From Escherichia coli (lineage in GTDB: Bacteria > Pseudomonadota > Gammaproteobacteria > Enterobacterales > Enterobacteriaceae): a DNA stretch of 64,000 nucleotides. The notes beneath the pieces are model-generated. The model did not search any database, was not told where the DNA came from, and saw only the letters and a list, made by a program, of their open reading frames with translations. Positions 25,284 through 29,112 of this stretch are shown one piece after another. The translations under genes and the position numbers were made by a program. The stretch lies in assembly GCF_013315695.1 (NCBI RefSeq), contig NZ_CP054353.1; one strand, given 5' to 3'. Every line of letters starts with the position of its first letter. Position 1 is the stretch's first letter.

Positions 25284-26177
25284 ATGAATGGAAAATTGCA
25301 AAGTTCGGATGTAAAAAACGAAACTCCGTACAATATTCCCTTATTGATTAACGAAAATGTGATCTCCAGCGGAATTTCTCTGATCTCGCTCTGGCATACC
25401 TACGCCGACGAGCATTACCGGGTGATCTGGCCGCGGGACAAGAAGAAACCGCTTATCGCCAACTCATGGGTTGCGGTGTATACCGTACAAGGATGTGGGA
25501 AAATTATTTTAAAGAATGGCGAACAAATAACTCTGCATGGCAACTGTATTATATTTTTAAAGCCAATGGATATTCACTCTTATCACTGTGAAGGTTTAGT
25601 CTGGGAACAGTACTGGATGGAATTTACCCCCACCAGTATGATGGATATTCCCGTTGGTCAGCAAAGCGTTATTTATAATGGCGAAATTTATAATCAGGAA
25701 CTCACCGAAGTTGCTGAGTTAATAACTTCACCAGAAGCAATAAAAAATAATCTGGCAGTCGCTTTTCTGACGAAAATTATTTATCAGTGGATTTGTCTTA
25801 TGCACGCAGTCGGTAAAAAAGATCCACAACGGCGGCAAATTGAAAAATTAATTGCCACTTTACATGCCAGTCTACAACAACGCTGGAGCGTAGCTGATAT
25901 GGCTGCCACGATCCCCTGTAGCGAGGCCTGGTTGCGTCGTCTGTTTTTACGCTATACCGGCAAGACGCCGAAAGAATATTACCTCGATGCGCGTCTGGAT
26001 CTGGCGCTATCGCTATTAAAGCAACAAGGGAACTCGGTTGGCGAAGTCGCTGATACGCTCAACTTCTTCGACTCCTTTCATTTCAGCAAAGCCTTTAAAA
26101 ATAAATTTGGTTATGCGCCGTCAGCCGTGCTGAAGAATACGGACCAGCACCCCACGGATGCCAGTCCACACAATTAA
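25284..26177 (+). CDS. yidL: AraC-family transcriptional regulator YidL
   Basis: C-terminal AraC-type HTH ([41 protein letters not shown]); GGAGGG RBS before ATG 25284. Confidence 0.75.
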
Positions 26178-27496
26178 CGTAACTCTGGCCAGTACGCTTT
26201 GTTGGCCTCCAGCAACTCATCCAGAATAGCTTTGGCGACCGAGGCGCTCGGTACCGTTTTCGACAACGTAATCGCCTGCCACAGGTGCTGATATGAACGC
26301 TGTTCCCAGGCGTCCACGACCAGTTTTTCCACCGCCACTTGCTGACTCATTAACCCTTTCTGAAACTGCGGGATATCGCCGACCACCAGTGGTTCTGGTC
26401 CGTTGTGCCCGACCAGACACGGGATTTCGACCATCGCTTCATCATCAAAGTTATGGATTGCCCCGTTGTTAGGCACAATCAGCAACATCCGCTCCTGAGT
26501 GTTGAAGGCAATCGCCGCCGCAAGATCGACGATGTATGACGCATGTTCGTCAATTTCCAGCTTGCCCGCCGCTGAATTTCCTGCCGCCGTAATGGCGCGG
26601 CAAGCATCGAAAACCTGTTTCTCGCGATGCTCCATCACCTCATTCGCGCGGGTATGTTCAGGGTTGGAATGCTGAACGACATAATCCGGGAAGAGATAAT
26701 ATTTCAGATAGGTGTTCGGCAATGTATCCGGGTCCAGTGCCTGGACATCCCGCGCTTTTGCATAGGTGTCGTTCCAGCTCGCTTCAGTATGTGTATCTTG
26801 CTGCGGTGGAACATAACCGTGCTTAGAGACATATTGCCGCAGCTGGGGCATCAGGTCGTTGCCCTGCAAATCTTCAATTGATGTCCACCAGCCAAAGTGG
26901 TTCAGGCCGTAGTAGCGCACGCGCATCTGTTTGCGATCTTGCAGCCCAACAATTTGCGCCATCCGGCTTTCAATACCGATTGGCATGTCACAGATGTTGA
27001 GGATTTTCGCATTCGGGCGCAGACGACGCGTGGCTTCTGCGACAATGGCTGCCGGGTTGGAGTAGTTGAGCATCCAGGCATTTGGTGAATATTTTTCCAT
27101 ATAATCCACCAGTTCCAGGACGCCGCCAATGGAACGCATGCCGTACGCTATTCCGCCGGGTCCGCATGTTTCCTGACCAACAACGCCGTGGCGCAGCGGG
27201 ATTTTTTCATCCAGTTCGCGCATCGGGTATTTGCCGACGCGGATGTGCGCCATGACAAAATCAACGTCGCTGAATGCCACTTCAGGATCGGTGGTGTAAC
27301 TAAACGCAATGTCCGGCGCTTTTTCTTTAAGGATGACTTTACAGGCTTCGGCAATCACTTCCTGCCGCGCACCATCGTTATCATAAAATTTCAGTGCACG
27401 AAGCGGGAAACGGTCCTGATTCGCCAGGAGCATCAACACGATGCCTGGCGTAAAGGTGCTTCCACCGCCTGCGACAACCACTGAGAATTTGGTCAT
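26174..27496 (-). CDS. glvG: 6-phospho-alpha-glucosidase (glycoside hydrolase family 4), intact
   Basis: 440 aa with N-terminal NAD-binding Rossmann motif ([15 protein letters not shown]); GH4-like throughout; start overlaps stop of upstream PTS gene (TAATG). Confidence 0.8.
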
Positions 27497-29112
27497 TATA
27501 CTGCCTCCGTAATGGCAACATTTTCTGCTGATTGATGAGAATTAATTAAGCTATCGAGCTGTTCACGCAGCTGGGATACATGCAAACCAATGATCACCTG
27601 AATGGCATCGCCACTACGGAAGACGCCGTGCGCTCCCAGCTTTTTAAAGACTTCGTCATCCAGCGTTTGTGACATGTCATGCAGTGCAATACGTAAACGC
27701 GTCGCGCAATTGTTGATGCTGGAGATATTGCCGACCCCGCCCAGGGCTTGCAGGATACCGGCAGCCTGATCCAGCTCTTTTTTTGGCTCTGCCGCGGTGG
27801 TTTGGCCTCGCGAGGCTTTATATTCGGCTTTTGAGTAGAGTTTCACTTCCGCATCTTCACGTCCCGGCGTGCACATGTTGAATTGCAGAATCAGGGTGCG
27901 GAAAACCACGAAGTACAGCAGGGTAAAGCACAACCCAATGGCGATTTGGGTCAGCATCATATCCGCGTGGTTGCTGAACATCGGGATCCAGTTTTGCGGT
28001 AAAACCTGGTCAATCAGACCTCCGCCCATGTTGCCCACCACACCAAAGAGGTACATCACGGTCGACATTGAGGCCGCCAGCACGGCGTGTACCGCAAACA
28101 GCAACGGTGAAATGAACAGGAAGGTAAATTCCAGCGGTTCGGTAATTCCCACCAGCATGGCGGTTAAGGTTGCAGGGATCAGCAAGCCCGCCACTTTTAC
28201 CCGATTTTCCGGTGCAGCAGTGAAGTACATTGCTAAAGAAATGCCCACGGCACCAAAGATTTTTGAGTTACCGTGCAGGGCAAAACCGCCTTCCGGGAAC
28301 AACGATTTCAGCGGCTCGGCGCTCAAACTGAACTCTTGCAGATGCTGCGCCCAGTACATCTGAATGCCGCCTTCAACAGCTGCCGGACCAAAGATAAACG
28401 GTCCGTAGATGAAGTGGTGTAAACCGGTTGGGATCAGAATACGTTCGAGGAAGGTGTAAACCCAGACCCCAAGCGCACCCGCCGAACGCAGGAACGCTTG
28501 CAGAGATTCAATCCCCATTTGTACTTTTGGCCAGCCGAGCAACGTCAGCCAGGCGCAGGGGATCATCACCAGGAAGGCGATAATCACCACATAAGACGTC
28601 CCCTGGAAAATGCCGAGAAACACCGGCAGTTTTTTATCGAACAGACGGTTATGCAGCGCCGTCACAATGCCGGAAATGATAATTGCGCCGATAATGCTGG
28701 TATCGAGGGTTTTAATCCCGGCCATCATTGTCAGACCGCTACCTGCCACCGCGTCCTGAGTGAAATCGACGCCGAAGTAGCTTCCCCAGGTCATTCCCAT
28801 CGCGTTGATGAAATAGTTCCAGGTCAGGAAACTCACCATCACCGCCAGACAAGCTCGCCCCTGCGCTTGCTTAGCAAGGCCAATGGGTAAACCGACAGCA
28901 AAAATCAGCGGCATATTACGGAATACCGTCCAACCGCCCTCTTCAATAATATGTACGATTTGCGCGAATAAACTGTTCGGATCGGTCAGTGATTCCCCGA
29001 CAAACATCGGGTTTTGCAGCAAGATGGCAAGACCCACCACAATCCCGGCGAAGGGAAACAGCAGCACTGGCGTGAACATCGCGCCGCCAAAGCGTTGAAT
29101 TTGACTGAGCAT
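27496..29112 (-). CDS. glvC: PTS alpha-glucoside-type EIICB component, intact fused form
   Basis: 539 aa from ATG 29112 (GAGGA RBS): EIIC membrane domain plus C-terminal EIIB domain with CATRLR phosphorylation motif; ORF-track start 29373 rejected. Confidence 0.78.

Follow-up and report, generated by a model that had tools for sequence, protein, structure and literature searches.

In E. coli K-12 the glv genes glvC (b3683), glvB (b3682) and glvG (b4556) are cryptic, which raises the question of whether the counterpart at the same chromosomal locus in another E. coli strain is a working operon and, if so, which regulator governs it. We analyzed a stretch of 64,000 nucleotides from contig NZ_CP054353.1 (assembly GCF_013315695.1), hereafter the window. 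A preliminary description of this DNA, made from the letters and a list of open reading frames, had recognized an intact glvCB-glvG operon for alpha-glucosides that looked functional and adjoined the AraC-type regulator gene yidL. The analysis presented here leads to a different regulator. Our main reading, to which we assign a probability of about 0.8, is that the locus is an ancestral, full-length alpha-glucoside operon of the aglA/aglB type, probably regulated by YidP, in which an IS4 insertion into yidP would most likely derepress the structural genes. The features of the region are collected in Table 1.

Table 1 Features of the glv region and the adjoining segment in the window
Feature	Position	Strand	Description or basis
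yidL	25284..26177	+	AraC-family regulator; convergent with glvG, divergent from yidK-yidJ; gene ends overlap glvG by 4 bp
glvG	26174..27496	-	uninterrupted ORF; full-length GH4 6-phospho-alpha-glucosidase, 440 aa
glvG stretch deleted in K-12	26396..26903	-	508 bp; alignment to NC_000913; bounded by 8-bp microhomology GAACCACT
glvCB	27496..29112	-	uninterrupted ORF; single-chain PTS EIICB, 538 aa, without EIIA domain
glvCB codon 369	28006..28008	-	CAG (Gln) here; in K-12 TAG (amber), dividing the gene into glvC and glvB
divergent yidP-glvCB control region	29113..29410		28-sequence cross-species alignment
CRP-like site CATGAAAGCGATCACG	29226..29241	-	7/10 matches to TGTGA-N6-TCACA; strongly conserved block
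candidate YidP operator	29262..29287	-	conserved inverted repeat GTCTAC-N14-GTAGAT; conserved alignment columns
truncated yidP	29411..29695	+	94 codons, winged-HTH only; Pfam GntR domain only; TAA stop from IS4 terminus
IS4	29693..31118	-	1426 bp; transposase ORF 29706-31052; NF033592 and Pfam DDE_Tnp_1 matches
near end of inverted segment	31119..50460		ravA-viaA-asnA-asnC-mioC-oriC-mnmG-rsmG-atp-glmUS

Inspection of the two structural genes revealed uninterrupted open reading frames, as first described; the ORF list bears this out, and no inactivating mutation was found in either gene. The conserved start of glvCB is read from the sequence as the ATG at 29112, preceded by AAGAGG 8 nt upstream, and the identical gene of strain MS 21-1 is called at 1617 nt by PGAP. 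Because the stop codon at 27496-27498 is one of the 539 codons counted from 29112, GlvCB comprises 538 residues, one fewer than the 539 originally given. Its stop codon overlaps the start codon of glvG in a TAATG at 27494-27498, in agreement with the coupling noticed earlier. The assignments to the GH4 and EIICB families likewise hold, given the following profile and structure matches. GlvG matches the Pfam families Glyco_hydro_4 (E 1.9e-66) and Glyco_hydro_4C (E 6.5e-56), and its GH4 domains are complete, with PF02056 covering the N-terminal Rossmann domain (residues 6-184) and PF11975 the C-terminal domain (residues 195-415). It aligns without gaps both to the structure of Klebsiella pneumoniae 6-phospho-alpha-glucosidase (6DUX; GlvG residues 1-439, E 1.3e-275) and to that of Bacillus subtilis GlvA (1U8X; E 6.5e-225). 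A GGGS sequence starting at residue 10 presumably forms the NAD-binding glycine motif. Residues Cys169 and Asp170 in NICDMP and His200 in GLNHFGW are taken to be the putative metal-binding and catalytic residues (C171, D172 and H202 in B. subtilis GlvA numbering), with the Cys and His as metal ligands and the Asp as the catalytic residue. The GGGS motif and all three residues are identical in the 6DUX alignment.

The transporter scores 959.2 bits against TIGR02005, the profile of alpha-glucoside-specific PTS IIBC proteins, over all 524 model positions; the curated family cut-off is 607.3 bits. Its single chain contains the Pfam domains PTS_EIIC (PF02378) and PTS_EIIB (PF00367), and neither family-profile nor Pfam searches detected an EIIA domain in it. 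The GITEPLEF motif from residue 322 and NCATRLR, which harbors the EIIB phosphorylation cysteine Cys469, align to the corresponding motifs of E. coli PtsG (8QSR). Where 47-51 orthologues agree to 95% or more, the window proteins deviate at 3 of 298 columns in GlvG and at 6 of 268 in GlvCB. Changes in GlvCB that are specific to E. coli at otherwise conserved positions include, most prominently, K414C in the KTPGRED linker and H380S. Missense inactivation of either protein was considered and rejected: the deviations are common to other E. coli, and no known catalytic residue is affected.

Alignment to NC_000913 confirmed that the K-12 locus is disrupted over the same span, as had been stated in the preliminary description, and located the two lesions, the amber codon at window position 28008 and the deletion within glvG (Table 1). 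The amber mutation (Q369amber) is accompanied by P238Q in K-12, and the alleles of the two strains differ by 28 substitutions. The glvG deletion, which shifts the reading frame and lies between the 8-bp repeats, also occurs in many wild E. coli. Among 5426 complete E. coli genomes, 4279 carry the glv locus and 1147 (21%) lack it. The segment missing from K-12 glvG, queried with sequence from inside the deleted stretch, is present in 1652 of the 5426, and glvG is deleted in about 2600, roughly 48% of the total. Thus, the deletion is the majority state among locus carriers and is widespread in wild strains. A count based on an 81-nt deletion-junction query, with a threshold of 80% query coverage, was dropped: the search merges fragments separated by as much as about 540 bp, which gave even intact genomes a score of 100%. 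The 81-bp matches in a single piece do prove that the deletion occurs in wild strains. As for the other lesion, the CAG allele of glvCB is found in 3925 genomes and the TAG allele in 348, and all 40 TAG carriers among the matches listed are K-12 laboratory derivatives; of the two lesions, the amber allele alone looks restricted to K-12. Proteins identical to the GlvCB and GlvG of the window are already annotated elsewhere, for example in O157:H7 EDL933. An intact glvCB-glvG pair is already known, ordinary and common in wild E. coli, and the regulatory twist described below is a modest one.

Such frequent loss may suggest that the window locus is a decaying remnant that has simply not yet been hit, with yidP::IS4 as the first step of decay rather than an adaptive or activating event. 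In line with this, BL21 (E. coli B) has a 79-bp frameshift in yidP beside an intact glvCB-glvG, strain Combat13F7 has an 87-bp promoter deletion, and the neighboring yidJ is frameshifted in the window. However, the synonymous and nonsynonymous differences between lineages that keep the genes number 23:0 against EDL933 and 28:2 against BL21 for glvCB, and 13:2 and 18:1, respectively, for glvG. Judged by these counts, glvCB and glvG are under purifying selection between E. coli lineages. Moreover, eight other inspected genomes with an intact glvG have an intact yidP. We therefore consider a decaying remnant quite improbable and keep to the reading of an ancestral operon that has been retained.

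The ancestral arrangement is best appreciated by comparison with known systems. The K. pneumoniae genes aglA (EIICB-Agl) and aglB (phospho-alpha-glucosidase; 6DUX/6DVV) resemble glvCB-glvG in gene order and translational arrangement, and the orthologues in K. pneumoniae ATCC 13883 share 90% identity with GlvG and 81% with GlvCB. In Klebsiella indica and Raoultella, a YidP-like GntR gene is located upstream, as in E. coli. The systems also differ: the linker reads CTPGRED in E. coli GlvCB versus KTPGRED, the regulator gene of the window strain is broken, unlike that of the K. pneumoniae system, and E. coli GlvCB and GlvG, unlike AglA and AglB, are known from sequence rather than biochemistry. 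The maltose operon of B. subtilis, glvA(malA)-glvR-glvC(malP), operates by the same chemistry of PTS uptake followed by GH4 hydrolysis; its enzyme is homologous (74-75% identity across three Bacillus loci), as is its transporter (61%). Its gene order is nevertheless different, with the regulator between glvA and glvC. No YidP homologue was found in the examined Bacillus loci, and the B. subtilis regulator GlvR belongs to another family than YidP. AglA consists of EIICB only, like GlvCB, and both AglA and B. subtilis GlvC (expressed in E. coli) depend on EIIA-Glc (Crr), according to passages of PMC5309279 that cite Pikis 2006 (for AglA) and Thompson 2001.

Which of the two neighboring regulator genes belongs to the operon was examined by synteny. 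The earlier placement of yidL next to the operon stands: the gene is intact and its 3' end overlaps that of glvG, which would suit a normally regulated, functional operon under the control of the adjoining YidL. However, yidL converges on glvG and diverges from yidK-yidJ. In each of the 47 gammaproteobacterial species for which enough upstream flank was stored with the locus, a YidP orthologue (41-82% identity) is encoded divergently upstream of glvCB-glvG, whereas YidL-YidK-YidJ adjoin the operon in only 6. Furthermore, an IS200/IS605 element has cost the E. coli strains HL15 and Combat13F7 their yidI-yidL genes, but not yidP-glvCB-glvG, and it is the conserved neighbor, yidP, that is broken in the window. 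On this synteny YidL was rejected as the operon regulator; such a role is very unlikely, and we give next to no credence to an operon running normally under its control. The same comparison, 47 of 47 against 6 of 47, points to YidP, a member of the GntR/HutC subfamily, as probably the cognate regulator of glvCB-glvG.

Full-length YidP, as encoded intact in K-12, consists of a GntR domain and a UTRA domain (residues 87-224), the winged-HTH plus UTRA architecture also seen in the HutC-subfamily GntR repressors NagR/YvoA and DasR. These are its best solved relatives (NagR/YvoA, E 3e-24; DasR, E 1e-13), and they are repressors that respond to sugar phosphates. The 94-residue product of the window keeps the GntR domain and has lost the UTRA domain for effector binding and dimerization, so that it no longer shows the GntR/HutC architecture. 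In K-12, yidP is intact and glvCB and glvG are broken, whereas in the window strain the structural genes are intact and yidP is broken. Because IS4 cuts yidP after codon 94, the initial impression of a functional operon is true only of the structural genes, whereas expression control is broken. Our search of the literature on YidP function or on glv phenotypes in wild E. coli yielded only lists of uncharacterized transcription factors that include YidP.

An alignment of 28 sequences across species revealed four conserved elements in the divergent control region, namely an operator-like repeat, a CRP-like site, a -10-like hexamer and a Shine-Dalgarno sequence. The 170 nt closest to glvCB show no variation in 10 of the 11 E. 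coli sequences compared. The half-sites of the candidate YidP operator are similar to GTCTA and TAGAC, the two halves of the NagR/DasR operator; they are about 14 bp apart, whereas those of NagR/DasR abut. A palindrome, GTAGA-TC-TCTAC at 29256-29267, overlaps the candidate operator. The CRP-like block may be regarded as a candidate CRP site; its center and the downstream -10-like hexamer TATCCT (29180-29185) are 48 nt apart, which puts the site at about -60 from the putative transcription start. The candidate operator is situated upstream of the CRP-like site and not over the -10/-35 region, where a repressor would classically bind. Scanning of 26000-29500 found no consensus sigma-70 promoter, and terminators were no more frequent than expected by chance. 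In addition, the differences between K-12 and the window that recur every 12 bp (29276, 29288, 29300 and 29312) were considered as a repeat or compensatory pattern. This was rejected; they are ordinary haplotype polymorphisms, because they are common to lineages among ten other E. coli.

The upstream position of the operator is typical of activators and, together with the missing consensus promoter, raises the prospect that the reading frames are intact and the operon nevertheless silent, either because YidP served as an activator or co-activator that is now lost or because the operon is cryptic in E. coli regardless of YidP. The sugar operons bgl, asc and chb are also cryptic in E. coli, and methyl-alpha-glucoside is a sugar for which the species is generally scored negative. 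For the type strain, which may or may not carry the glv locus, negative results are listed for methyl-alpha-glucoside, palatinose, turanose and maltitol (PMC4334874). However, the close characterized relatives of YidP, namely NagR/YvoA, DasR, TreR, HutC and PhnF, are all repressors, and the near-absence of nonsynonymous change between lineages argues that the glv genes are expressed and used in nature. On balance, a silent operon appears unlikely to us, although it deserves serious attention, and we continue with YidP as a probable repressor.

IS4 elements are about 1.4 kb long, encode a DDE transposase, end in terminal inverted repeats and generate an 11-13-bp target duplication. The element that interrupts yidP agrees with this in length and transposase; its terminal inverted repeats are imperfect, and it lies after nucleotide 285 of yidP (codon 94). 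Its two flanks differ (left, CACCAGCCAGGTG; right, CCCCCCTTTGAG), and each corresponds to the duplication at a separate parental insertion, as recombination between two copies would produce; the parental sites used for comparison were those of MSB1_4I (yidP::IS4) and IAI39 (kup-IS4-ravA). As the flanks stem from two insertion sites, the arrangement points to an inversion between two IS4 copies that spans about 67 kb, oriC included. BLAST against K-12 loci showed that the segment beyond IS4 is collinear with K-12 positions 3931182 down to 3911837, in reverse, with oriC mapping from K-12 to about 36326-36557 in the window. Alternatively, the yidP'-IS4-ravA junction might be an assembly misjoin across repeated IS4 copies, the true state being a simple yidP::IS4 as in MSB1_4I. 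No complete genome among the 5426 contains the junction in full, the best match extending over 86% of it, and in related genomes 16-20 places match the junction query, mostly through IS4 sequence, which invites misassembly. However, the orientations of the parental IS4 copies are exactly as inversion by homologous recombination requires, and, since the inverted segment includes oriC, the orientation of genes relative to replication would be preserved. A misjoin is in our judgment improbable. Under inversion and misjoin alike yidP is disrupted, and the conclusion on the operon is therefore unchanged. The IS4-bounded inversion across oriC represents a small, clean case of genome rearrangement driven by insertion sequences.

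These observations enable us to outline a putative working model for the operon. Transcription of glvCB-glvG would most likely start from a weak, CRP-dependent promoter, which YidP probably controls at the conserved GTCTAC-N14-GTAGA(C/T) repeat, and translation of the two genes would be coupled via the TAATG overlap. GlvCB is predicted to take up alpha-glucosides and to phosphorylate them at O-6; judging from its relatives, the substrates may comprise methyl-alpha-glucoside, isomaltose, maltitol and sucrose isomers such as palatinose. PEP would serve as the phosphoryl donor, with EI, HPr and the unlinked EIIA-Glc (Crr, whose gene lies outside the window) relaying the group in turn to Cys469 in the IIB domain of GlvCB. 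Finally, GlvG, as a presumed NAD+/Mn2+-dependent GH4 enzyme, would cleave the 6-phospho-alpha-glucoside into glucose-6-phosphate and the aglycone. Arbutin, which the preliminary description had put forward as a test substrate, is a beta-glucoside. It is not expected for this family, in keeping with the substrate lists of PMC5309279.

In the framework of this model, the most likely consequence of yidP::IS4 would be a loss of repression, leading to inducer-independent expression that is still under catabolite control, an outcome that we rate somewhat above even odds. A precedent may be seen in the cryptic E. coli asc operon, which Hall and Xu reportedly found in 1992 to be activated by an insertion of IS186 into the repressor gene ascG. 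There, too, an insertion sequence sits in the adjoining, divergent regulator gene of an operon for a PTS and a phosphoglucosidase. However, the repressor role of AscG, a LacI-type protein, has been demonstrated experimentally, whereas the role of YidP and its direction of control are predictions. It is a tentative and rather doubtful proposition that yidP::IS4, in parallel to ascG::IS186, has in this lineage activated an alpha-glucoside PTS operon that is otherwise under tight repression. The independent yidP frameshift of BL21 beside intact structural genes hints that derepression recurs.

In summary, three states of the glv locus are common in E. coli (locus absent, glvG deleted, locus intact), which corrects assumptions based on K-12. 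These findings leave the knowledge of how such operons work unchanged. For YidP, hitherto uncharacterized, they do provide a target open to testing, together with candidates for its operator and for its class of effectors. Being natural yidP mutants, the window strain and BL21 would allow a direct readout of how the operon is regulated. If the proposed derepression is true, some wild E. coli would be constitutive for growth on dietary isomaltulose, maltitol, isomaltose and methyl-alpha-glucoside, which the species reportedly does not use.

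The window carries a complete glvCB–glvG operon on its minus strand, whose existence and gene-level identification are both confirmed (see the table). The preliminary description had proposed a 539-aa EIICB and a 440-aa GH4 6-phospho-alpha-glucosidase ORF free of internal stops. Both genes are indeed uninterrupted, and only the length of the EIICB needs correction: glvCB comprises 539 codons including the stop and thus encodes a 538-aa protein. The proposed coupling is borne out by a TAATG common to the stop of the upstream glvCB and the start of the downstream glvG, and the AraC-family gene yidL adjoins the operon as claimed, converging on glvG with a 4-bp overlap of the gene ends. 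GlvG contains both GH4 domains. GlvCB reaches 959 bits with TIGR02005 (alpha-glucoside-specific PTS IIBC family; cut-off 607) and contains EIIC and EIIB domains without an EIIA domain. In several RefSeq loci (L002, L081, L084 and others in our set from other genomes), the PGAP name for the full 538-aa EIICB is "PTS sugar transporter subunit IIB", which conceals a complete IICB transporter. The probable cause is that NF007255, a 161-position model matching residues 379–539, which correspond to K-12 GlvB, scores above its own cut-off (372 versus 321 bits).

Features of the glv locus and its surroundings in the window
Feature	Position	Strand	Description
yidJ	21920-23405	minus	putative sulfatase; 8-bp deletion at ~23304
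glvG	26174-27496	minus	uninterrupted ORF, 440 aa
glvCB	27496-29112	minus	ORF end at 27496; conserved ATG start at 29112, with AAGAGG 8 nt upstream
-10-like hexamer	29180-29185		TATCCT; 48 nt downstream of the centre of the CRP-like site
CRP-like site	29226-29241		CATGAAAGCGATCACG; strongly conserved
Candidate operator	29262-29287		inverted repeat GTCTAC-N14-GTAGA(C/T); conserved in the 28-region alignment
Truncated yidP	start 29411		cut after codon 94 by IS4; only the wHTH domain left
IS4	29693-31118		1426 bp, cuts yidP
ravA to glmUS	31119-50460		K-12 3931182 down to 3911837, reversed
oriC	~36326-36557		
Fimbrial operon	50461-55892		5.4-kb stretch between glmS and pstS, missing from K-12

Both proteins appear healthy on every comparison run. 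The alignment of GlvG is free of gaps both with the 6-phospho-alpha-glucosidase structure of K. pneumoniae (6DUX, E 1.3e-275) and with that of B. subtilis GlvA (1U8X), and the protein retains the motifs GGGS, C169/D170 and H200; GlvCB retains GITEPLEF and the EIIB cysteine C469. Against 47–51 orthologues, GlvG deviates at 3 of 298 well-conserved columns and GlvCB at 6 of 268, most notably by K414C in the KTPGRED linker of GlvCB; none of these nine columns holds a known catalytic residue. Comparison of glvCB with EDL933 revealed 23 synonymous and no nonsynonymous differences, and with BL21 28 and two, respectively; the corresponding values for glvG are 13 and two, and 18 and one. Such nearly all-synonymous divergence between E. 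coli lineages is the pattern that marks genes maintained by selection.

Pairwise alignment of window 26100-29420 with K-12 (NC_000913), which yielded 28 substitutions and a single internal gap, bore out the claim of a disrupted K-12 locus. The gap reflects the loss of 508 bp from K-12 glvG (window 26396-26903) between two copies of GAACCACT; this deletion begins directly behind the GLNH motif (His200) and is frameshifting. At codon 369 of glvCB (window 28008), CAG in the window is TAG in K-12, so that a point mutation, and not an indel, divides the K-12 gene. K-12 GlvCB also carries P238Q, and all remaining coding differences are synonymous. PMC5309279, citing Reizer 1994 and Thompson 2001, likewise describes the K-12 homologues of aglA and aglB as cryptic or truncated. 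Outside the operon, yidJ bears an 8-bp deletion (CTGGCGGC) relative to K-12 and MS 21-1 that shifts the frame after about codon 33, and it is therefore a pseudogene in the window.

The intact state is ordinary in E. coli. Among 5426 complete genomes, the glv locus is present in 4279 and the interior of the 508-bp segment in 1652, leaving about 2600 carriers of the locus without the segment; among the 60 segment matches listed, all but the weakest are annotated as 6-phospho-alpha-glucosidase. The K-12 deletion junction recurs as a single perfect 81-bp piece in wild isolates of diverse origin (cattle, humans, pigs and rivers). An old, widespread polymorphism, the glvG deletion is no oddity of K-12. 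The glvCB TAG allele occurs in 348 genomes (all 40 among the matches listed are K-12 laboratory derivatives) and the CAG allele in 3925. Five genomes are identical to the window over 26174-29400, and the same GlvCB protein (WP_000952127.1) is annotated in MS 21-1, MSB1_4I and O157:H7 EDL933.

Gene neighbourhoods point to YidP, not YidL, as the cognate regulator. A scan for GlvG relatives, with one genome per species, yielded 78 loci. A YidP orthologue (41%–82% identical) lies divergently and directly upstream of glvCB–glvG in every one of the 47 gammaproteobacterial loci whose stored upstream flank is long enough, covering Citrobacter, Klebsiella, Raoultella, Kluyvera and Enterobacter as well as Serratia, Proteus, Pectobacterium, Aeromonas and Vibrio. 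YidL and YidK, with YidJ where the stored flank reaches, adjoin the operon in only six of the 47 species. Moreover, E. coli HL15 and Combat13F7 retain yidP–glvCB–glvG with an IS200/IS605 element in place of yidI to yidL (1394-3174 of the extracted loci L090 and L091). Full-length YidP combines a GntR wHTH domain with a UTRA domain; its nearest solved relatives, NagR/YvoA and DasR, are sugar-phosphate-responsive repressors, and a literature search found no function assigned to YidP. In Kluyvera and Superficieibacter, three loci (L005, L007 and L026) hold two tandem yidP–glvCB–glvG modules, the second YidP being only 56%–61% identical to that of E. coli, an indication that alpha-glucoside systems were duplicated and their regulators diverged.

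Alignment of 28 yidP–glvCB intergenic regions revealed a putative operator, a putative CRP site and a -10-like hexamer, together with a conserved Shine-Dalgarno sequence and start codon of glvCB. A promoter scan of this region found no consensus sigma-70 promoter, in keeping with a need for an activator. Over the 170 nt nearest glvCB, 10 of 11 E. coli sequences are identical; in Combat13F7, an 87-bp deletion takes out the -10-like hexamer together with part of the CRP-like site. Four intergenic positions at which K-12 and the window differ are spaced at exactly 12 bp (29276, 29288, 29300 and 29312); ten other strains show shared haplotype polymorphisms there, and the spacing looks coincidental.

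In the window, yidP is interrupted by IS4, whose terminus supplies the stop codon. The two flanks of the element are mismatched: the left, CACCAGCCAGGTG, is the target duplication of yidP::IS4 in MSB1_4I, and the right, CCCCCCTTTGAG, that of the kup–IS4–ravA insertion in IAI39. Beyond IS4, ravA-viaA-asnA-asnC-mioC-oriC-mnmG-atp-glmUS runs in reverse of K-12. Given that the parental IS4 copies are inverted relative to each other, recombination between the two would flip about 67 kb including oriC, as the mismatched duplications and reversed gene order imply; by K-12 gene order, dnaA would also be included. The whole yidP'–IS4–ravA junction is found in none of the 5426 complete genomes (best match covering 86%), so that the rearrangement is either a rare one or an artefact of assembly; yidP is disrupted in both cases. 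It is intact in eight other genomes with intact glvG, and BL21 (BL21-AI, L085, 7005-7642) carries an independent 79-bp frameshifting deletion in yidP beside intact glvCB–glvG. Beside glmS, the fimbrial stretch encodes a chaperone-usher system with a fimbrial subunit, a PapD-like chaperone, an 840-aa usher and a 357-aa protein with a C-terminal fimbrial domain; it may correspond to the lpf2-type island known from the glmS–pstS site.

By homology, phosphoryl groups would pass from PEP through EI, HPr and EIIA-Glc (Crr) to Cys469 of GlvCB, which would import an alpha-glucoside and phosphorylate it at O-6; GlvG, with NAD+ and Mn2+, would then yield glucose-6-phosphate and the aglycone. The substrate range and Crr requirement are drawn from PMC5309279, as given there for K. 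pneumoniae AglA/AglB and B. subtilis GlvA/GlvC expressed in E. coli. Loss of the effector and dimerisation domain of YidP would derepress the operon, with catabolite control remaining, at a probability we put at 55%–60%. The main rival reading, of YidP as an activator or of an operon silent in E. coli regardless, seems rather unlikely: in its favor stands mainly the position of the candidate operator, upstream of the CRP-like site, whereas all close characterized relatives of YidP are repressors, which makes derepression the most likely outcome. The E. coli type strain, which may or may not carry the glv locus, is negative on methyl-alpha-glucoside, palatinose, turanose and maltitol (PMC4334874).

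In summary, the window shows a known operon in its common wild-type form. The points added here, of modest interest, are the widespread glvG deletion, YidP as the putative cognate regulator, the yidP lesions by IS4 in the window and by deletion in BL21, and an apparent inversion spanning oriC.
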